From Candidatus Cloacimonadales bacterium (GTDB lineage: Bacteria > Cloacimonadota > Cloacimonadia > Cloacimonadales > JAFGVF01), in assembly GCA_963677495.2 (NCBI GenBank), contig CAXXOU010000004.1, positions 1,024,001 through 1,088,000 of the forward strand: a DNA stretch of 64,000 nt, in the 5' to 3' direction. Position 1 is the stretch's first letter; each line of letters starts with the position of its first letter. Below are positions 17,429-47,765 of this stretch, one piece after another. A program made the position numbers and the translations under genes. Under the pieces are notes generated by a model. It did no database searches. It worked only from the letters and a program-made list of their open reading frames with translations, and was not told where the DNA came from.

Positions 17429-17890
17429 ATGAAAGTGAATTTGATGAAACCATTCCGTTCCTTTTCAGGAAAGATGGATGAACTTGTGTACTCAGCCTTT
17501 AATGATGGCTATATCTGCTTTAGTCGTGAGTATGTGATACCTGCAACTACTGAGCAGAACACTACTATGGGAAACATTGCCGAGAACCTTGGAACTGTTT
17601 ATGATAGCTTCGATTCCGGTTGGATTGATGATTTGAAAACATACACAACTTGTTATGGAAGTGATGTAGCCGGAAAGACTAAGCGTCATCCATCATTCTA
17701 TGCACTGTACATGAAGATGTGGTGGGCAGTTCACAAAGATGACCCTACTATTGACCTGAAGACTGTTACCTTTGGAGATATCCAAATTCTTGATATCGGA
17801 ATCCAAACTATTAAGGATGCAATTGATAATGGTTTTCTGCCTGAAGTCAGCAAGTATAATGACCTAACCAATTCATACAATGGTTCTTAA
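17429..17890 (+). CDS. Hypothetical protein, 'MKVNL' family paralog 1
   Basis: Aligns end-to-end by eye with 46940-47359; followed by hairpin gctcccttcggggagc. Confidence 0.75.
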   Translation: MKVNLMKPFRSFSGKMDELVYSAFNDGYICFSREYVIPATTEQNTTMGNIAENLGTVYDSFDSGWIDDLKTYTTCYGSDVAGKTKRHPSFYALYMKMWWAVHKDDPTIDLKTVTFGDIQILDIGIQTIKDAIDNGFLPEVSKYNDLTNSYNGS

Positions 17891-20386: not shown

Positions 20387-20823
20387 TAGTGTTTGTTTCC
20401 TATGCGTTTTTCCAGGAGTTCAAGTAGGGCTTCCTTCTCTTCGCCGGTCTTTGAGAATCTAAGGTTTAAACCTCGGAAAGGATCAAGACGGTTCGGATGT
20501 CTGAAAGTACTAAGCATGATTCCACGCTTATCCATATAATAGCACTTGAAGTCCTGATACTCGCGTCTGCTATTGATAAATAGATACTTCACGTGAATAT
20601 GCGTATCGTAAAATGTATAATAAGATGGTATGAAGTAAGTGATGAGACTGAAGAACAGTATCAAAACACCAAGTAAGTAATAAAATGGCATATCCCAGTT
20701 TACTACCGCAACATTCCAAAGCATTACTGCCATTGCGATGAGGAAGAGGGAGAGAATAATTGATGTTCGTGGACGGTCGGCGAATGGCCATGACATCCAG
20801 CTTACAAGCACTTTATTCGACAT
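20386..20823 (-). CDS. Small membrane protein (2 TM plus PH-like C-terminus)
   Basis: Two hydrophobic segments; translationally coupled between yicC and rnr; start at MSNKVLV inferred. Confidence 0.6.
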   Translation of the reverse strand: MSNKVLVSWMSWPFADRPRTSIILSLFLIAMAVMLWNVAVVNWDMPFYYLLGVLILFFSLITYFIPSYYTFYDTHIHVKYLFINSRREYQDFKCYYMDKRGIMLSTFRHPNRLDPFRGLNLRFSKTGEEKEALLELLEKRIGNKH

Positions 20824-21694
20824 TGAGAACCATCTCCTTGCATTTATCAACTTCCTCTTTGATTGTTAGGACATTATCAAAAGAGTTGGTAGTACTGAAT
20901 TTAGAGCCCAAAGTGTTAGCTTCACGATGCATCTCTTGAAGTATGAAATTCATAGTTTTACCGATGGGAGAGAGGTCAGCTTTTTCAATCGTATCCTTGA
21001 GTTTGTGGATATGATTTCTAAGACGTGTAATCTCTTCATTTATATCAGATTTATCTACATATATAGCTGTTTCAACTAAGATTCTCTTCTCGTTTTCCTC
21101 TGTAAGATGATCGTTCAGAAGCTCGATAACACGTGCTTTTAGTTTATCATGAATCTCAGTTTTATGCTCCTGAAAGTAGGCTTCAATTTCATCAATTGCC
21201 TTAAGCATCTTCCCCACTGATTCCAGGAAGAATTGCTGCATAGATTTTCCTTCAACAATTGCCATATCCTGATGCTTTGTGAGTGCTTGCTCTGCAACTT
21301 CCATGAATTTCCCTGAAAATTCAGAGCTTTCTAAGTCTTCGCTTTCCAACACAATAAGATCACTCTTTTGAAGTAGTTCATTAATGTCCGGATTGTACTC
21401 ACGATTGAGATGTTTAGCAATATCAGAACCGAGTTTATAGTACATATTAAGCTTGTTAAAATCAACTTCAGCTTGTGGAATTCGTTTGTCTTTATAGTTC
21501 ACGCGAACTTCAACTGTACCACGAGAAATCCTACTCTGCATAAGCTTTCTAATTGGCAGGTCAAGATACGTAAGTTCATTTGGAAAGTATAATTTAAGGT
21601 CTAAGAATCTGTTATTTACAGATCTAATCTGTAGTTCTATATCAAACTGGTCACTTGTATAAGAGCTTTTACCGAAACCGGTCATGCTTTTCAT
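20813..21694 (-). CDS. yicC: YicC/YloC-family endoribonuclease
   Basis: MKSMTGFG, IRSVNNRFLDL, DINEEITRL, GKTMNFILQEMHREANTLGSK. Confidence 0.9.
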   Translation of the reverse strand: MKSMTGFGKSSYTSDQFDIELQIRSVNNRFLDLKLYFPNELTYLDLPIRKLMQSRISRGTVEVRVNYKDKRIPQAEVDFNKLNMYYKLGSDIAKHLNREYNPDINELLQKSDLIVLESEDLESSEFSGKFMEVAEQALTKHQDMAIVEGKSMQQFFLESVGKMLKAIDEIEAYFQEHKTEIHDKLKARVIELLNDHLTEENEKRILVETAIYVDKSDINEEITRLRNHIHKLKDTIEKADLSPIGKTMNFILQEMHREANTLGSKFSTTNSFDNVLTIKEEVDKCKEMVLNVE

Positions 21695-21911
21695 ATATGT
21701 TATCTCCTGAAAATTCAATTATATCTATTGAATTCAAATAGGGTATTTGGGCAAGATAAATTTCATCATGTCACAAAATCCCATTTTTGGGTGTCTGAAA
21801 AACGCGTTTTTTAAGACTTAGTAATGATATATGTCTACTTAATGCGAAAAAACGCAAATTTCAGCGTCATGAATTTAGGACTAATGGGGGAAAGTTGAGT
21901 TTTTTTTCTGT

Positions 21912-22019
21912 ACCTTCGTAATGGTTGAGTTTGCGAATCCTTGCGAATGGTGCACTTCGAAGGAGTAGACGTTGCGATACAGGAGAACCATTTCCAAGAT
22001 CTGTGACCATTGAAAAGGA
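21912..22019 (+). repeat. REP-like A+B doublet pair (RAYT-associated family), degenerate
   Basis: accttcgtaatggttgagtttgcgaatccttgcgaatggt ... gagaaccatttccaagatctgtgaccattgaaaagg. Confidence 0.75.
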
Positions 22020-22377
22020 TCGGCACAAAAAAAAACTGATACTAACAACACATTCATAACTATCAACATTTAATCATCTGACTATCCACAACATAGCTAA
22101 AACCTTTACAAGTTTACATAACGTATATTATTTATAAACTATATATCTGTAAATGGGGAGAGGGCTGATTCTCTTTCCTCTCTCCCATGGCATCTAAGAT
22201 TTGAGCTGAATTAAGAGCTTTTCTGTTTTCAATCAGACTTCCGATATGACTTTGTATCTAAAAGTGAAAATTCAACCGGTTTTATTCGTGCATGGATTAA
22301 TCTACGTATTACATATCAAGATCGATTCCGGTATTTGAATCAATCTTATGAATCTCTCTAACATCTCTGATACTTTA

Positions 22378-22458
22378 CCAGGGGTCAACCACGGGTTGAC
22401 GACGGGTTTACCACGGCTCCCGTGGTTAGACCGTGGATTACCCTTGGAATATGCGTGG
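22378..22458. repeat. 11-bp-period bipartite inverted array (CCACGG/CCGTGG core)
   Basis: Cores at 22378, 22389, 22400, 22411, then inverted at 22420, 22431, 22442, 22453. Confidence 0.8.
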
Positions 22459-22682
22459 TTAAATCTCATATTTGTAGATATCATCTGATCTAAATCTCTA
22501 ATTATGATCGTCTGGTTTGATATGCAATGTACATCACTTTTAGATTAACTAATTATAACTGTGATAAGCATTGATAATATCTGAAATAGAATACTTAGTA
22601 TTTGATATATAGATGTATCTGTGTGGATAGGTAAACTTTGATCTACCTCTACCCTATTTCAGCTTCTAAGTAATTTGCAACA

Positions 22683-23156
22683 TCAATCATAGATTTTAAA
22701 ACCAAATGACCTACTATACTTAGCAAGTTTTTTACCTGATTGTTTATCAATGATATCAACCCAATATAGGTGCGTTCCTTTTTCATTACCAACATAGATA
22801 GCTAATGCATAAGCGAAATTCTCTTTGGTTTTAGCATCAATCCCGTTCCATATTATTCTGGATATGTAAGCTTTGTTTAGGCTAGAATCAATTTCTAAAT
22901 ATCCCATTTCAATCTGTTCCTCGATTCCTTTTAATTGTTCTCTTGTTAGAGATAATTTTGAACTAAAGGATTTTGAAGAAGCACTTTCATCAGGGAAATG
23001 TACTATCTTTATTGTAAAAGCAATTACTGCGATAATGAAAAATAGTACAAACAACCCACCACAACCTAATCTCTTAACTTTCACACCACAATAAGGACAT
23101 TTTTCAGCTTTACTACTAATTTCGTTTTGACACTCCTTACACTTAATAATTGCCAT
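22683..23156 (-). CDS. Zinc-ribbon domain membrane protein
   Basis: MAIIKCKECQNEISSKAEKCPYCG followed by one TM helix; ggagg RBS before ATG at 23156. Confidence 0.75.
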   Translation of the reverse strand: MAIIKCKECQNEISSKAEKCPYCGVKVKRLGCGGLFVLFFIIAVIAFTIKIVHFPDESASSKSFSSKLSLTREQLKGIEEQIEMGYLEIDSSLNKAYISRIIWNGIDAKTKENFAYALAIYVGNEKGTHLYWVDIIDKQSGKKLAKYSRSFGFKIYD

Positions 23157-23278
23157 CCCATCCTCCTTAACCCTTACAATATTAATCCGTTCAAAATATG
23201 TCAAATAGATAATTATTATCATACTTTAAAACACTCTTAAGTAGTTGCTAATTAATGTTATTAACTAACATATTATCC

Positions 23279-24191: not shown

Positions 24192-24414
24192 ACCTTTGGA
24201 ATGGTTGAGTTTTGCGAGACCTTGCAAATGGTGGGATCAAAGGAAGAAACACCTTACCTTTGGAATGGTTGAGTATGCGAGACCTTGCAAATGGTGGGAG
24301 TTTGCAATATATACAATTGTTTACAAGAGAACCATTCGCAAGGTCTATGGACCATTCCGAAGGTAGAATTACAAGAGAACCATTCGCAAGGTCTATGGAC
24401 CATTCCGAAGGTAG
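24192..24414. repeat. REP-like cluster A-A-B-B downstream of the RAYT-like gene
   Basis: A units at 24192 and 24256; B units at 24321 and 24369 (48-bp tandem). Confidence 0.9.
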
Positions 24415-24443: not shown

Positions 24444-24962
24444 CTAATATTCTAATTCTTCTGCTTCTTTACCTGATTTGTAATAGTTCAAAATATCGAG
24501 ATATGCACTCAATGAATCAAAAGAATCATAATAGAACTTAGTATAAACTATCTCACTCTTGAAATAATTCAGAGAACAAAACTGTCTTTGGAATTTGTTT
24601 TGGGGATTCGTGTGAATGTAGTTTATCGTAGTTTCAAGGTATGAATCATTTCTTAGTTCCTTGAATTTAACAGTGCTTTCAAAAAGAGTTCCTTTTCTAC
24701 AGTATTTCTTATTATAATATTGGGTATAGGTGTTGAATACGTACTGGAACCATTTATATATTCTTTGTGTTCCCCTCTGTTGAACAAGAAAGTGGTAATG
24801 ATTAGGCATTAAAGCAAATGCAATAATATTAACAAAATCTTGGTGTTTCGATTCTTTAATAATCTGTATAAGTGTTACATAATCACTCTTTTCTGAGAAT
24901 ATCAACCCTTTATTACATCCCCTATTAAAAGCATGATAGAAACAACCTTCTTCAGTAAACAT
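24444..24962 (-). mobile_element. REP-associated tyrosine transposase-like protein (HUH/Y1, RAYT)
   Basis: YHAFNRG, AFALMPNHYHFL (HUH), YYNKKYCRKGTLF, YIHTNP (catalytic Tyr); ggagg RBS before ATG at 24962; flanked by repeats. Confidence 0.88.
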
Positions 24963-25024
24963 ACAACCTCCATAATTATTTTGTAAGAATATAGGTAGAT
25001 GCTTGTCAATAAAAAACACACCCC

Positions 25025-25133
25025 ACCTTTGGAATGGTTGAGTATGCGAGACCTTGCAAATGGTGGGAGTTTGCAATATATACAATTGTTTACAAGAGAA
25101 CCATTCGCAAGGTCTAAGGACCATTCCGTAGGT
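25025..25133. repeat. REP-like A+B pair upstream of the RAYT-like gene
   Basis: ~110-bp near-identical direct repeat of 24256-24364. Confidence 0.9.
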
Positions 25134-25240: not shown

Positions 25241-25627
25241 ACCATCCATCAAAACGCAATCATCCCACTGCTTTCCCACTGTGCACGCACAGTGATCCCA
25301 GTGAAACAGTGGGTTGGCAGTGCCTTCACAGTGGGGACACAGTGCGTGCACAGTGGGTTGTTGAAAAGTGCAGTAAAAGTGAGAAAAAGGGGCAATGAAT
25401 GTAGCTAAGTTATTGCAAAAGGCACTGTGTATGTTAATCTAAAGCTGTCGCAATAGCGACCGAAGGGAGATGGGCGAATAGCGAAAAGTGGTAAGAGTAC
25501 ACCACTATGAGTCCAACTCCTGATAGTCGCTATGACTTCAATGGTGTCATTCTAGGAAGTCCGTTGCCTTATCAGGCCGACAAACTCCCTGAAATGCGCT
25601 AAGTTATTGCAAATTGCACTGTCTAAG
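25241..25627 (-). repeat. Composite element X, copy 2 (reverse orientation, different cargo)
   Basis: DRs at 25398-25433 and 25592-25627; hairpin 25553-25590; CACTG/CAGTG array at about 25266-25355. Confidence 0.85.
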
Positions 25628-25753
25628 CAAATCTCATTGAAAATATAGATTTACTAATCACCTCTCCCCTTTCACTAATGATTGAATATTAGTCATTTGC
25701 ATTTCCTACTAAATCACTATACTATAATCAAAACGAGCATTCAGGAGGAAACA

Positions 25754-27865
25754 ATGAGATATAGATTACTATTCATAATGTTAATGATACTAAGTTCATC
25801 ATGGGCTATGTGGGAAAGGACCAATGGTCCTGATGGTGGAGATATCCAAAAAATAATTGAATATAATGGTTATGTATTTACTATAACCGGTGGAACAATG
25901 GGTCAAAATGGTTCAGTATATAGATCTGATAATGAAGCCGAGAGTTGGGATTTAATCAGTTCCAATTTCAATATTAATTACGGGGTAACAGATATTGTTA
26001 CAAATGAGATGTATATATTTGCAGGAACTAAGGGTTTTGGAATCTATAGAAGCAGTGATTCAGGTGATTCCTGGACACATATTGAAACAATTAGTGATCT
26101 CCTCCAAACCGATGTGAGACATATGTATGCTGATAATAATGTTTTGATAGTAGCTACCTATACAAGTGGAATCTACTACTCAATGGATAATGGTGATACC
26201 TGGTCAATGATGGGGCAACTACTCACAGGTGGGTCCAATACTGTAAACGCTATTATCTCGCATAATGATACTAAGTATATCGCCACTCACGGTGGTGTAT
26301 ATAAATTTGAAAATCAAGCATGGTCTCATATTACAGAGATTACTGAAGAGTACATTCGAGATATCAAACCTTTAGCAGAATATCTTTTTTTAGCAACAAC
26401 AGATTCGATATATCGCTTCAATCCAGCTGATCTTACGTTTGAGAATACAGGTATGAACGGTTCCGATTGGATATATATACATAATGATACAATTTATACA
26501 TCAGATTACCAGATAATTAACTATTCAAGTGATTTGGGTTCTAATTGGAATTCCCTGACAATGAGTACATTGAATCAATATGCAAGATGCACTGCTTTTT
26601 ATATAGGAGAAGATTACTGGCTGAGTGGAAATGGTGTTTATAACATCTACAAATCAGTAGACGATGGATCTACATGGGAGAATTCAGCTAAAGGAATAAC
26701 AAATATAAACACACATGATTTCGCAATCTATCAAAATGAGCTGTATGCTGTAACAGAGTTTGCTGACTTCGGTAGAATCTATAGAACATCAAATCAAGGT
26801 GAAGACTGGATTCATTCAGATATAACTACTGATCAGCTTGGTTATATTTCAATATATGCCGGTGAAGATTTCATGCTTGCAGGTTCATTTGGAAATGGAA
26901 TATATAGGTCTGAAAATGGTTTAGACTGGTCTCCTCTTGGCTTTGTAAATAGTCCTATGTCCTATCCAACTGAGATCATTGAACATAATGGAGCTATCTA
27001 TACAGGTGCTTTAGGATTTAATATAGATATCTATAAGAGTAGTGATAATGGCTTTTCTTTCCAATCCTTAAATGTACCCGGGGCAGGTGATATTCATGCA
27101 TTATATTCTCAGAATGGGGTTCTCTATTACGGACGAACTGACGGTATGTACATGAGTGCTGATGATGGAATGTCATGGCAAAGTGTCGGAACATCCGAGT
27201 TTGATAATCTATTTATTAGAGGTATTGAGATCTTTAATGGGAAAATTTATGCTACAACTGTAGCCAGTTTAATTGTTCTTAATGATAATGATGAATGGGA
27301 AGAAGTTGAGCTGGGTGGAGACTATTGGATATCTTCCATTGAAAAGGTTGAAGATAAACTTCTGGTTGGAACCCGAGAAGACGGAATTTTCGAGATTAAC
27401 ACAGATGGTGTGATTAGCAACTTTAGTTCAGGATTACCGTTTGGGGCAAATGGAGTATATCCTAGAGTTTTGTCTATCTACTCTGATGATAGTTATGCAT
27501 ATCTTAGTGCTGAAATGTATGGAGTATATAGAATTCCTTTAGATGAAGTTGATATCGAAGAGAACATTTTAGAAAATAACAGAGTGAGTACGCGAGTATA
27601 TCCCAATCCGTTTAACGTTTCATTAGATAACAACATATCAATTGAACTAGACTTGAAGAGAAATTCAGAAGTAAAGGTTGAAGTATTCAACATACTTGGA
27701 CAAAGAGTTAAGACTATCAAATCAAATCAGATGAAATCGGGTCTAAGTTCAATGACATGGGATGGAAGAACAGATAAGAAGAATGAGAGTTCTTCAGGAA
27801 TATACTTCATCAAAACATCTGTTGATGAAGATGTAGGTGTTGAGAAGTTGATAATCGTAAAATAG
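25754..27865 (+). CDS. Secreted BNR/Asp-box beta-propeller protein with C-terminal FlgD-Ig/T9SS-like domain
   Basis: Repeated IYRSxDxGxSW; VYPNPFN...VFNILGQRVKT...WDG; aggagg RBS before ATG 25754. Confidence 0.8.
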   Translation: MRYRLLFIMLMILSSSWAMWERTNGPDGGDIQKIIEYNGYVFTITGGTMGQNGSVYRSDNEAESWDLISSNFNINYGVTDIVTNEMYIFAGTKGFGIYRSSDSGDSWTHIETISDLLQTDVRHMYADNNVLIVATYTSGIYYSMDNGDTWSMMGQLLTGGSNTVNAIISHNDTKYIATHGGVYKFENQAWSHITEITEEYIRDIKPLAEYLFLATTDSIYRFNPADLTFENTGMNGSDWIYIHNDTIYTSDYQIINYSSDLGSNWNSLTMSTLNQYARCTAFYIGEDYWLSGNGVYNIYKSVDDGSTWENSAKGITNINTHDFAIYQNELYAVTEFADFGRIYRTSNQGEDWIHSDITTDQLGYISIYAGEDFMLAGSFGNGIYRSENGLDWSPLGFVNSPMSYPTEIIEHNGAIYTGALGFNIDIYKSSDNGFSFQSLNVPGAGDIHALYSQNGVLYYGRTDGMYMSADDGMSWQSVGTSEFDNLFIRGIEIFNGKIYATTVASLIVLNDNDEWEEVELGGDYWISSIEKVEDKLLVGTREDGIFEINTDGVISNFSSGLPFGANGVYPRVLSIYSDDSYAYLSAEMYGVYRIPLDEVDIEENILENNRVSTRVYPNPFNVSLDNNISIELDLKRNSEVKVEVFNILGQRVKTIKSNQMKSGLSSMTWDGRTDKKNESSSGIYFIKTSVDEDVGVEKLIIVK

Positions 27866-27875
27866 GTTTTACAAG

Positions 27876-27902
27876 AAATGGGGATGATAATCATCCCCAT
27901 TT
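27876..27902 (+). terminator. Probable terminator hairpin
   Basis: aaatggggatga-taa-tcatccccattt. Confidence 0.65.
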
Positions 27903-28074
27903 AAATTAAGTTTTTGACAGTCAATCCTTACAAATCCAAAAGCTTTGCCTTCCCAAAGTTCAGTCTCAGGATTCTCTAAGGTTAGTATCAAGTTTATTAA
28001 TCAAGTCAATTATTCCTTGACTTTCATTTTGTAACAGTATATCTTCTAATCATCAATTATCTGAAGGAGTATGT

Positions 28075-30606
28075 ATGAAGAAGCTTTTACCACTGTTATT
28101 CGTCTTTGTGTTATGTAACACTTTGCTTGCAAACATTACTCGTATACAGGGACAAGGAACATCTGATTCACCGTTCCTGATATCTTCCATAGACGATATT
28201 ATAGACATTCAAAACTCATATTTTCAATTTGCTCAAGATATGCATTATTTGCAGGTTCAAGATTTTGCTATTGACCCATCTGCCTCATATTTAGCCAATA
28301 ATCCTTTGTTTGGACACTCTAATAATTTTGCAGGAGTTTATGATGGTGGAAACTATAACATTGATTTCCAGAATATTAACGGATGGACTTCTCTTTTCGG
28401 TACAACTTCTGGAGCTCATTTAATGAACATAAACTTAGTTAATATCAACTATGAGGCTATATCCTATCAAAGTCCCTTTGTAAACAATGCTATTCAAACT
28501 CTTTTTGAAAACTGTAGTGTAACCGGAACAATAAATCTTTCAGGAGATGCCGGGGGAATAGTAAACATTAATCAAGGAAGCACTATCTCTAATTGCTTTG
28601 TGAATATTGCTTTTGTTGGTGGACCTTATGCTGATGCATACAATGTTGCAGGTATTTGTTGTTCTGGATTTAATACTAATATCAGTAACTGCTTCGTTGT
28701 AGGTGAAATGCACAATACCAATGGTAGCGGGATTATAGATACTATAACAGAAGGTATAACTCCAGGAGAAACAAATCTTCATAACAATTATGTGTGTATC
28801 GATAATGTTAATAGTAGTGTAAGTGCAATGATTGGTGGCATTTGGGATAACTCAGGTCTAAATATAAGTAACAATGTTTGGAATTCAGAGCTAAACACAA
28901 CCAACCAGAGTCAGTTCAATCTAAACTTCTCAAGTTCAGAGTTGTTAGCATCAAATAACGCAGATATGCGCTTAGCTTCTACATTCACATCTATTGGTTG
29001 GGATTTCGTAGGGGAAATTGTTAATGGTAGTGACGATTATTGGTCAATAAGCCCTCAATACAATAATGGTTTCCCATACCTAACTGCTTTCAATCCTTTC
29101 ATAACTGATTTTGAAGCTGATAGTACTTCTGTTTTTGTCGATTCACAAGTCCAGTTTACAGATTTATCAGTAGGTGGAGCGAGTAATTGGAGTTGGGATT
29201 TTGATAATGATGGAGTAATTGACAGTGAGTTACAAAATCCGACTTACTCCTATTCTTTTCCTGGAACATATTCTGTAAACCTTACTACCACTTCTTCAGA
29301 TGATTCATTGAGTCTTGTTAAAACAGATTATATTGCTGTGAATCCATTACCACAACCGGATCAATATTGTGCAACTGAGAGTTTAGATTTTGGTTCAGTT
29401 TTTGACTCACAATCCAATACATTATCGATTTTGATTCAAAACATTGGAGGTGTTGAATTAGTTGTAAACAGTATCGAATCAACCGATCCTGCATATTCTG
29501 CATCTGTAAGTCAAATGGGAATACCTTTCAATGTCAGTACAGGAAGTTCACAAGATGTGGAAATAACATTCCAGCCAACAACAAATGGTGTGGTTTCGGC
29601 TACACTAACGATAAATACCAACGACCCTATAAACCCAAATCACACAATACAACTTACCGGGATAGGTCATGATCTTGTCGCAGATTTTCAAGGTGATCCA
29701 CAATCTGGGGATGTACCACTAAGTGTACAGTTTGCTAACTACTCTACAGGTACAATCATCAGTTATTTATGGGATTTTGGTGATGGTACAACTTCGACTG
29801 ATGAGTTTGGGTTTCATGAGTATCAAGTCCCGGGTACATATTCAGTATCGTTAACAGTATTTGATGCAAATCATCAGGTAACTCATATTGAAACAGACTA
29901 TATTGTAGTTAATGACTATGCAAATATAAGCACGAATCTATTGACGATTGATTTCGGTACTATCTATCTTTCATCAGCTTCCAGAGATACAACGGTTATT
30001 ATAACTAATACAGGTGTATCCGGATTACAAGTAACGGATGTAACTATAAATTATATAATGGGTAATAATGGATTCACTTTTGATTATCCTAATATGTATG
30101 AAACGATAATAGAAAATGCAACAAGCAATATGCAAATAACATTTAGCCCGGATAATGTCGGTGAATATCAATCTGAAATTGTTCTTACAAACAACTCTAA
30201 TGCTTCTCCGACTCATTCCATCTCGTTAACAGGTATCTGCGAATACAATCCTCCCAAAAATCCACAAAATGTGCAAATTACTACATCAGGTAATGATGCA
30301 ATCATAAGTTGGGATAATGTGACAGAAGATATCTTCAATAATCCAATAACACCTAACGGATATATCGTATTGTATAATGAGTCAGCGAGTACTGATAATG
30401 ATGACTACTACTTCCTCCACTATGTAAGTAGTGATTCTGTCTTCACTCATCAAAATGTTGGGTATTTCAGAGATCAGATGTACTACAGAGTTGAAGCATA
30501 TATAAGTTATAGTCCTCTTAGAACAAATGTCCTTAATGACTTAAATTCAACGAATAAAATTATAATGTATAAAGATATAGATACATACATTGAGAAACGA
30601 AAATAA
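28075..30606 (+). CDS. Secreted surface protein: GLUG-like N-region, two PKD and two choice-of-anchor-D-like Ig domains, FN3-like tail
   Basis: WSWDFDNDG and YLWDFGDG PKD motifs; LDFGSV/IDFGTI...ITFxP; GWDFVGE...NNGFPYL shared with the 13002-16744 protein; TTGACT-N17-TATCTT at 28017. Confidence 0.75.
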   Translation: MKKLLPLLFVFVLCNTLLANITRIQGQGTSDSPFLISSIDDIIDIQNSYFQFAQDMHYLQVQDFAIDPSASYLANNPLFGHSNNFAGVYDGGNYNIDFQNINGWTSLFGTTSGAHLMNINLVNINYEAISYQSPFVNNAIQTLFENCSVTGTINLSGDAGGIVNINQGSTISNCFVNIAFVGGPYADAYNVAGICCSGFNTNISNCFVVGEMHNTNGSGIIDTITEGITPGETNLHNNYVCIDNVNSSVSAMIGGIWDNSGLNISNNVWNSELNTTNQSQFNLNFSSSELLASNNADMRLASTFTSIGWDFVGEIVNGSDDYWSISPQYNNGFPYLTAFNPFITDFEADSTSVFVDSQVQFTDLSVGGASNWSWDFDNDGVIDSELQNPTYSYSFPGTYSVNLTTTSSDDSLSLVKTDYIAVNPLPQPDQYCATESLDFGSVFDSQSNTLSILIQNIGGVELVVNSIESTDPAYSASVSQMGIPFNVSTGSSQDVEITFQPTTNGVVSATLTINTNDPINPNHTIQLTGIGHDLVADFQGDPQSGDVPLSVQFANYSTGTIISYLWDFGDGTTSTDEFGFHEYQVPGTYSVSLTVFDANHQVTHIETDYIVVNDYANISTNLLTIDFGTIYLSSASRDTTVIITNTGVSGLQVTDVTINYIMGNNGFTFDYPNMYETIIENATSNMQITFSPDNVGEYQSEIVLTNNSNASPTHSISLTGICEYNPPKNPQNVQITTSGNDAIISWDNVTEDIFNNPITPNGYIVLYNESASTDNDDYYFLHYVSSDSVFTHQNVGYFRDQMYYRVEAYISYSPLRTNVLNDLNSTNKIIMYKDIDTYIEKRK

Positions 30607-30626
30607 TCTTTCAAGCATATAAAAAG

Positions 30627-30658
30627 AGCTAGTAGGATAAAATCTTGTCCTACTAGCT
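30627..30658. terminator. Hairpin between convergent genes
   Basis: agctagtagga...tcctactagct. Confidence 0.65.
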
Positions 30659-30684
30659 TAAACTTCTAGATTAAGAACTAATTA

Positions 30685-46939: not shown

Positions 46940-47359
46940 TTATACAGCAGGTAACAGCTCATTCTCAACAGCCATTTTGATAGTAATAACCGGCAAATTA
47001 AGAGCAACAACATACTCCGGTGTTATTGTCTTTAGATCAACTTCGGGATAGGCTTTGTGCAGGTTATGCATCATTTTGATAAATACGTTGTAACCATTAT
47101 AAATAATGCCTTCACCGACTCTGATGTTGTTAAGCCTATTCGAATAATGTTTGATATCACTCTTGTAACTATCAGTGCAATTCTTATAAAACTTACTAAG
47201 ATTCTTGGTTTTAAGAGAAAAGTTCGAGTTATTCTTATTTTTTCTTGGTTTCACATAAGTTCGTGCTATAAGTGCATCACTCTGCGGATAGTAATAAAAT
47301 ACAAGTTTTCCGACTCTACCGTTCAAAGTCTTTGCTATCAAATCTAAATTTACTTTCAT
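46940..47359 (-). CDS. Hypothetical basic protein, 'MKVNL' family paralog 2
   Basis: ggagg RBS before ATG 47359; homologous to 17429-17890. Confidence 0.78.
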   Translation of the reverse strand: MKVNLDLIAKTLNGRVGKLVFYYYPQSDALIARTYVKPRKNKNNSNFSLKTKNLSKFYKNCTDSYKSDIKHYSNRLNNIRVGEGIIYNGYNVFIKMMHNLHKAYPEVDLKTITPEYVVALNLPVITIKMAVENELLPAV

Positions 47360-47519
47360 TGTTTCCTCCAATTCCTTCTCAAAAAGGTTTTCGTTTAATA
47401 ATTACAGGCTATAGGCTTTTAGCTATCAGCTAAAAAACCTTCCTCTATAATTATATGTGTGAAAAATGAGAGATTCCGTGAAAAAGTATGCATTTTTTTT
47501 GAATAAAGTCTTCATTCCA

Positions 47520-47592
47520 CCCTTAGATTTCTCATGCCCCACTCTCGACCCTCCCTTGCAAACCCAAGGGAGAGCCAAGGGAGGGGCAAGGG
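47520..47592. repeat. 11-bp-period bipartite inverted array (CCCTTG/CAAGGG core)
   Basis: Cores at 47520, 47531, 47542, 47553, then caaggg at 47565, 47576, 47587. Confidence 0.7.
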
Positions 47593-47765
47593 AGGCTTCT
47601 GGATTTCAGGTTGACTTCCGGCAAGGTATTTGTTCTGTAAAAGCTTTGTAAAAGCTTACAAAATATGCAATTAATTATGAATGTTTCCTCGAGAGTGATA
47701 TCAATCGATCCATTCTTATCTGCTTCTACGCTCCCTTTCAATTTTTACTCAACTTTTCTGGTTAC

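Follow-up and report, generated by a model that had tools for sequence, protein, structure and literature searches.

A diverged copy of a dispersed, imperfectly palindromic repeat of phased 11-bp units in the intergenic DNA of a Candidatus Cloacimonadales genome

The stretch of DNA analysed here, called the window in the following, comprises 64,000 nucleotides (G000:C4:1024001-1088000, with G000 denoting this genome of 3.41 Mb, 37% G+C and four contigs). Its genes are chromosomal and include those for SecA, topoisomerase I, AlaRS, LpxC/FabZ, an FeFe hydrogenase and several type IX secretion sorting-domain proteins, and two tRNAs are the only Rfam matches in the window at gathering score. For one of the local proteins, the closest named homologue belongs to a Cloacimonadota bin. 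The array under study is located in a 960-bp gap between a YicC-like gene (20813-21718, - strand) and an unannotated ORF encoding a zinc ribbon of 179 aa (22683-23222, - strand). For the region 21650-22750, no Rfam match was obtained at E <= 1, and a scan for promoter and terminator consensus sequences revealed nothing exceeding shuffled sequences. Among the genes neighbouring the array, DNA-binding families were not matched save for a weak zinc ribbon, and its neighbours in the window are devoid of par- or rep-type domains. The same gap contains a non-coding block (22076-22263) with 79% identity in the congener G001 and a 26-nt core found at 96% in the relative G002; this block holds a G/C-rich hairpin around 22155-22190 and has no Rfam match.

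The array itself consists of two opposed runs of four cores each. On the left, CCAGGG (22378), CCACGG (22389), CGACGG (22400) and CCACGG (22411) follow each other at an 11-bp step, and on the right the inverted cores CCGTGG (22420), CCGTGG (22431), CCTTGG (22442) and GCGTGG (22453) do the same, the last one ending at 22458. The starts of the last left and the first right core are 9 bp apart, also in the ungapped alignment of the family described below, and the dyad centre is base 22418, inside the spacer CTC. Tandem Repeats Finder reported a period of 11 at 22377-22416, and the inverted arms of this copy span 29 nt with 76% complementarity. The 81-base array has a G+C content of 59% (48/81), compared to 33.6% in window positions 22001-23000. 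An earlier note on this DNA, made from the sequence alone, had described two opposed 11-bp runs with a 9-bp jump that are GC-rich within AT-rich DNA, and both descriptions can be read directly in the sequence and its surrounding kilobase.

In order to evaluate the role of chance, we searched for any 6-mer present four times (at most 1 mismatch) at lag 11 and followed within 30 bp by 3 phased reverse-complement copies. Three sites were found in the real window (7853, 22378 and 41733) and none in either 100 first-order Markov resamples of the window or 20,000 shuffles of the array. The bipartite 4+4 array at 22378-22458 is real and not a chance product. The earlier note had also asked whether such arrays arise as often in shuffled sequences or match a described repeat family; the former did not occur, and for the latter Rfam yielded 0 matches and a full-text literature search, at the level of titles and abstract openings, brought up nothing on 11-bp phased dispersed arrays or Cloacimonadota repeats. 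Since the 41 copies are conserved over a stretch that begins approximately 12 bp ahead of the first core and ends a few bp past the last, we consider the element to extend over approximately 22366-22474 and not only over 22378-22458, with the following parts:

22366-22377, no strand: left terminal segment, diverged here from the left end conserved in the family; in 32 full-length copies, column conservation goes up some 12 bp ahead of the first core, and BLAST matches of other copies start at about 22370
22378-22416, + strand: left arm with four CCACGG-type units; of the 38 copies analysed, 32 have a four-unit arm and 6 are without one 11-bp unit
22417-22419, no strand: central spacer CTC with the dyad centre at 22418, giving the 9-bp core-to-core step
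22420-22458, - strand: right arm with four inverted CCGTGG-type units; its innermost unit is the least conserved unit in the family
22459-22474, no strand: right terminal segment; BLAST matches of other copies end at about 22466-22474, and conservation is at background a few bases past the last unit

A scan of the genome for phased CCACGG words revealed 73 arms at 42 loci, and a BLAST-anchored collection from the 3.41-Mb genome comprises 41 loci, all of which can be aligned gap-free to one 88-nt consensus. The earlier note had treated the array as a single site; it is actually one of 41 copies of a dispersed repeat of approximately 100 bp. The median identity to the consensus is 0.86 for the family and 0.81 for the window copy. 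When 1.3 kb around the window copy was used in BLAST searches, similarity was confined to approximately 22370-22474. The information content within the family goes up approximately 12 bp ahead of the first core, stays high in the spacers and drops a few bases after the last core; averaged over the family alignment, it amounts to ~1.63 bits in cores and ~1.34 bits in spacers. Units were analysed in 38 copies, with three weak partial copies set aside; 32 of them are full-length, and the remaining 6 each miss exactly one 11-bp unit. The two arms abut at all loci of the family in this genome, and in some copies the unit types are shuffled between the arms.

Because the similarity is bounded and the information content is high in the spacers as well, these elements of ~100 bp have been copied whole. 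Since the spacers are conserved almost like the cores, recent common descent, and not selection on the words, could account for this pattern, and judging from the alignment, copying of entire elements explains most of the sameness among the CCACGG copies. With respect to gene context, 39 of the 41 copies are intergenic, with 21 in tandem, 9 in divergent and 9 in convergent gaps, and the gene families flanking the 41 copies are diverse. This split follows the shares of tandem, divergent and convergent gaps in the intergenic length of the genome (56%, 27% and 16%, respectively), and therefore no preference for a gene context was seen. The window element is a diverged copy of a ~100-bp non-coding imperfect palindrome that is dispersed in intergenic DNA.

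The palindromic layout raises the question of whether the element acts as a hairpin or as a duplex. The window copy is predicted to fold at -42.5 kcal/mol (z = -3.6 for the + strand and -2.9 for the - strand in comparison to shuffles), with a minimum-energy structure that is slipped by one unit and is not a symmetric hairpin. In the family consensus, most mirror positions are pairable, over arms of 44 nt and short outer ends. Across 48 mirror pairs in the 32 full copies, which are very alike, compensatory changes number at most 4 per pair, and breaks of pairing reach up to 13 of the 32 copies. Furthermore, conservation is lowest in the innermost right unit, where the stem would be closed. Owing to the few compensatory changes, the many breaks and the poorly conserved apex unit, we lean towards reading the CCACGG element as double-stranded DNA rather than as a hairpin, and the copies are too alike for a firm call.

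Among relatives, the family has a narrow distribution. Three phased CCACGG words (at most 1 mismatch) were matched 63 times in this genome, 42 times in the congener G003 (an assembly 72% complete), once in G001 and not at all in the other 38 relatives searched. The units in G003 are of the CCCACGG type, and its two runs stand in the opposite order, as they do in the CCAAG family of this genome. The copy at C1:443673 is missing in both G002 and G003, where the gene end, the short flank and a neighbouring CACTG array are syntenic; this one clean comparison of a filled and an empty site suggests a duplication of TTA or TTTA, which is ambiguous at the junction. In G001, the flanks of the copy at C4:498406 abut without it, and the corresponding insert in this genome is 190 bp long and accompanied by a diverged copy of ~57 bp of the gene's 3' end. 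A comparison of the 41 copies with 400 control pairs did not reveal long flank duplications. The locus of the window copy is itself rearranged in G001, with an ABC-transporter gene in its place and no clean empty site, and three further loci checked for empty sites gave no usable synteny.

Outside of these relatives, at least 113 loci from many phyla carry four phased CCACGG words. Most are perfect tandem 11-mers, which we take to be unrelated minisatellites. In addition, a Puniceicoccales bin contains a two-armed phased CCACGG array next to a tRNA gene, Pseudoflavitalea contains a run of at least 15 phased CCACGG units with variable spacers, and a T7-like phage contig has an 11-mer in four perfect copies after its terminase gene, with the sequence of the commonest left-arm unit of the CCACGG family. 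Phased CCACGG words also gave four hits in metagenome contigs, and no partner gene for these words emerged from the other phyla, the phage contig or the metagenome contigs.

The CCACGG family is part of a larger class of arrays. A genome-wide periodicity score identified 306 arrays at lag 11, compared to 1-38 at lags 8-14, and clusters of three exact 5-mers numbered 211 at lag 11 and 1-45 at lags 7-15. The majority of the lag-11 arrays (241 of 306) are mostly intergenic, and arrays occupy 42-67% of the upstream gaps of at least 450 bp. Clustering of 210 exact-word arrays resulted in nine families with at least 2 copies, besides singletons: CACTG together with CCCGTTAG (88 arrays), CCACGG (41), CCAAG (34), CCCGAG (18), CCCTA (8) and others of 5, 3, 2 and 2. 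Phased reverse-complement copies were present within 70 bp in 104 of the 216 arrays having an exact word three times. The suggestion of the earlier note that one architecture is reused with different words is borne out by these 306 arrays, nine word families and frequent inverted copies.

Further arrays in the window have the words CACTG (7851, 25318 and 41719), CAAGGG (47540-47596) and CCCGTTAG (63603). The CACTG element shares the 11-bp step and the opposed runs with the CCACGG element, whereas its word is different and its unit exceeds 350 bp with conserved flanks. Moreover, every congener examined has CACTG arrays at the syntenic sites, in contrast to the CCACGG family with its restriction to G000 and G003. 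The CACTG array at 25250-25406 of the window is retained at the syntenic place in G001 with 77.7% identity, and in a five-sequence alignment of two loci across species the invariant columns of CACTG arrays lie in the words, and the spacers differ. The same array is located exactly at the edge of a difference between G000 and G001: approximately 5 kb (25406-30681) with two type IX secretion cargo genes are missing at the syntenic place in the latter. In 400-kb samples, 14 lag-11 arrays with other words were detected in the congener G001 (0-3 at other lags), compared to 1 in the sister-genus genome G004. So far, the lag-11 class has been seen only in this genus among those sampled, with the one sister genus sampled being nearly without it.

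Several families of this class, albeit not CCACGG, are linked to the binding site of the replication initiator DnaA. The standard DnaA box is used in this genome, with 10 matches (at most 1 mismatch) around dnaA compared to 0.88 expected. Genome-wide, 88 of the 154 perfect boxes lie within 80 bp of a lag-11 array (3.2 expected), and for intergenic DNA only, 76 of 101 are near an array (13 expected). The boxes form a box-N3-box palindrome just before the phased words (e.g., C1:46853-46938, C1:231676-231762 and C4:58268-58362) and accompany all 24 arrays labelled CCCTA, all 21 labelled AAGGT, CACGA or GTCAC, which we take to be one family, and all 5 labelled AGTAA. No boxes were found at the CACTG (72), CCACGG (37) and CCCGTTAG (16) arrays. 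More specifically, none of 37 CCACGG arrays lies within 80 bp of a perfect box, boxes with at most 1 mismatch occur in 280 bp of flanks for 6 of the 41 copies (8.3 expected), and there is no perfect box in the whole window. The best 9-mer of the CCACGG units matches 5-6 of 8 box positions, values that are reached by 75% and 23.5% of random 11-mers, respectively. Box palindromes were counted at 59 sites in G000, 27 in G002, 10 in G001 and 5 in G003, and at exactly 1 site in each of seven sister-genus genomes; in all three of the latter that were checked, this site is at the 5' end of dnaA. Because perfect boxes cap other array families and the palindrome is single-copy at dnaA in the sister genus, the lag-11 class has a real link to the site of the initiator, and the CCACGG family does not show it.

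We searched for a protein that could read or mobilise the CCACGG element and found none among RAYT-like genes, IS21-type and IS3-type elements, a family of 153-aa proteins (orf153) and DnaA paralogues. Five RAYT-like genes were identified in the genome by tblastn, one of them in the window (24444-25124, - strand), and there is an IS200-type Y1 family with 7 members. RAYT was rejected as a partner, as none of the five genes has a CCACGG array closer than 2450 bp and the gene in the window adjoins a CACTG array. The true start of the latter Y1 gene is probably at residue 55 of the listed ORF, and beside it there is a perfect 48-bp tandem duplication (24321-24414); a related repeat of ~105 bp occurs at 21907-22018 and forms a nine-copy tandem cluster beside a RAYT paralogue (G000 C2:153407-154464).

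The IS21-type element, encoding IstA and IstB, is present in 16 identical copies of ~2.36 kb flanked by 7-8 bp duplications (e.g., C4:1305697-1307229). It was rejected as the source of the arrays, given that its ends carry repeats of ~27 bp and no lag-11 words, and its copies are inserted into arrays and not bounded by them; one insertion is in the middle of a CACTG array and another one in a DnaA-box palindrome. Similarly, six identical 1357-bp copies of an IS3-type element with TG...CA ends and mostly 3-bp duplications (C2:142625, C2:235206, C2:359505, C3:93495, C4:221018 and C4:1237849) lie in the same orientation to the right of different CCAAG arrays, five within ~20 bp and one at ~50 bp, at a target that resembles the right end of the IS itself. 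Since identical IS copies accompany arrays that differ from each other, the CCAAG arrays were there before the IS landed beside them, and the ends of this IS are unrelated to the arms, so that it was rejected as well. An autonomous element with CCACGG arms and a transposase was not found in this genome, the ends of the IS3-type and IS21-type elements being unrelated.

The orf153 family comprises 22 paralogues of ~153 aa, including two in the window (17429-17890, + strand; 46940-47371, - strand), and has 94 representatives in a library of 1.8 billion proteins. Arrays are located upstream of 10 of the 22 genes, compared to 8.8% of all genes (p = 6e-6). This enrichment was dropped because the length of the upstream gap explains it, with 7.2 expected given this length against the 10 seen, and the family was therefore rejected as a cognate binder. 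No match to Pfam or NCBIfam was obtained, and an AlphaFold model (pLDDT 93.7) did not reveal a standout fold (best E = 0.84 for Foldseek against the PDB, best Z = 3.9 for VIA, best E = 0.3 for BFVD). It should be noted that five orf153 genes have a DnaA-box-capped array within ~450 bp upstream, as noticed by reading and not by a counted test, and that a ~20-bp motif (TTATAGAGGA... type), which has nothing in common with the lag-11 arrays, occurs as three spaced copies at G000 C4:453950-454130, upstream of an orf153-family gene. Extra paralogues of DnaA domain IV were not found, the genome having a single gene with this domain. With respect to the family of cognate binders that the earlier note had envisaged, no binder was found, and the only statistical lead vanished once intergenic length was controlled for.

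We tentatively favor, at a confidence falling somewhat short of even, the reading that the CCACGG repeat is a proliferating MITE/REP-like element that serves as a protein platform with one protomer per helical turn. On the duplex, the eight words would lie one per turn and nearly on one face, as two opposed runs about the dyad; a sequence-specific protein would start at the central palindrome and grow outwards in both directions by one protomer per turn, in the manner of DnaA on the two opposed four-site arrays of oriC, and each word family might have its own paralogue or its own variant of a single reader. The variation of 6 of the 38 copies by an exact unit is consistent with such a platform, as are the CACTG arrays, whose words are invariant across species and whose spacers differ. 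The points that weigh against it are the search for a reader and for an autonomous element with these arms, which found neither, an arm order that varies (reversed in the G003 relatives and the CCAAG family) and is awkward for a single binding geometry, a sequence that folds better than shuffles on both strands, only one clean empty site with its ambiguous TTA/TTTA, and spacers that are kept nearly as well as cores. The good folding would be expected if the palindrome were instead a REP/REPIN-type hairpin of single-stranded DNA (or RNA) moved by a Y1 HUH transposase, either RAYT or IS200-type, with the 11-bp substructure reflecting how the stem is built. We consider this possible, albeit doubtful. 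In addition to the folding energy and the pairable consensus, the presence of five RAYT-like genes and the 7-member IS200-type family in the genome is in line with it, as is the insertion of IS elements next to arrays; targeting of REP sequences by IS is described in PMC1525189. Conversely, no RAYT-like gene has a CCACGG array nearer than 2.4 kb, compensatory changes are few against many breaks, the apex unit is the least conserved one and the predicted fold is slipped by one unit. The arms of ~44 nt also stand apart from REP stems, which are far shorter.

A reader is dispensable if the repeats are selfish or neutral satellite-like DNA, generated by slippage of 11-mers, inversion of an arm and gene conversion, and harmless in long intergenic gaps. 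Exact 11-bp unit variation, shuffled unit types, the absence of a gene-context preference, the large share of long upstream gaps with arrays, and perfect 11-bp tandem arrays of the same word in many unrelated phyla and phage contigs agree with this explanation. We nevertheless regard it as unlikely, as slippage alone does not give a fixed 4+4 design with a fixed 9-bp centre in 41 copies, the excess is at lag 11 only, and words are kept at syntenic CACTG arrays while spacers change. Two further explanations of the element appear very improbable to us. The units could be low-affinity DnaA sites, i.e., 9-mers of the TTAACCACG kind 2 bp apart, that titrate or organise the initiator in the manner of datA or oriC; this would suit the geometry of the low-affinity sites in oriC and the 88 of 154 perfect boxes near other array families, but the match of the units to the box is at chance level, none of the 37 arrays has a perfect box nearby, and boxes with up to 1 mismatch are not in excess (6 of 41 against 8.3 expected). 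Alternatively, a transcription factor, for instance a winged-helix protein of the OmpR/PhoB type, could control a regulon by using the element as an operator or enhancer array. The usual site of this class, 7-bp direct repeats with a 4-bp spacer, has an 11-bp step, which counts in favor of an operator; the tandem, divergent and convergent copies, however, track intergenic length, some lie 7-60 bp from stop codons, the neighbours are unrelated, and the whole ~100 bp is copied with spacers and ends included. Both the platform reading and its rivals concern the CCACGG element. A more far-reaching scenario, which we consider improbable, is that the lag-11 arrays are origin-like modules turned mobile: the palindrome at the 5' end of dnaA would have been captured, joined to iteron words, amplified to 59 sites and diversified, some arrays (e.g., CCACGG) would have swapped the box for a second inverted run, and an oligomerising reader family, or DnaA with adaptors, would assemble at over 300 sites and thereby influence replication control or the structure of the chromosome.

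Bacteria commonly carry interspersed palindromic repeats, of which few, to our knowledge, have a known reader. A design with one word per helical turn is otherwise known from initiator and partition assemblies. In this genome, at least nine families share this design in a strict form, and a subset of them carries DnaA-box palindromes amplified from what is a single copy in the sister genus. Should these arrays be read by a protein or protein family, they would represent a new, highly multiplied protein-DNA system in an uncultured phylum and provide a natural series of word/reader pairs. If nothing reads them, they would be a clean case of periodic satellite-like DNA arising and spreading in a compact genome. 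Either way, the arrays make up much of the long intergenic DNA and mark landing places of IS elements as well as synteny breaks.

In comparison to known systems, the CCACGG repeat resembles the REP/REPIN/BIME elements of Proteobacteria in being short, non-coding, palindromic, multi-copy and intergenic, in the presence of several families per genome and in the insertion of IS elements. In contrast to these, CCACGG copies do not flank a RAYT gene, the arms consist of four phased 11-bp units instead of one short stem, and support for a hairpin through co-variation is weak in the family. With bacterial MITEs, it shares a length of ~100 bp, inverted arms, the lack of coding capacity, dozens of copies and presence or absence between congeners, and the terminal inverted repeats that characterize MITEs are present as the 29-nt arms of the window copy with their 76% complementarity. 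Unlike in MITEs, the whole element is formed by its arms, which show an internal periodicity, and no autonomous partner for them was found in this genome.

Plasmids offer a further parallel, as parC of R1 has 11-bp repeats in two blocks and plasmid iterons stand next to DnaA boxes. The centromere and iteron arrays of plasmids are likewise phased short direct repeats, on which proteins assemble cooperatively, but they adjoin their own par or rep gene on one replicon, whereas the CCACGG element is present in 41 chromosomal copies with unrelated neighbours. It is the box-capped families of this genome that resemble the plasmid arrangement of a DnaA box plus iterons. As for oriC, a high-affinity box separates its two runs of sites, unlike the abutting CCACGG arms. 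Moreover, oriC is a single locus by the unwinding element and is read by DnaA, in contrast to the 41 copies of the CCACGG element, which are without flanking high-affinity boxes. The low-affinity DnaA arrays of Escherichia coli oriC (R5M-tau2-I1-I2 and C3-C2-I3-C1) consist of four sites each, placed 2 bp apart, as stated in the Introduction of PMC6070618, and are in opposite orientation, as the title of the 2011 work by Rozgaja et al. listed there has it; both oriC and the CCACGG element are thus built of two opposed runs of four sites with a step of 9 + 2 = 11 bp.
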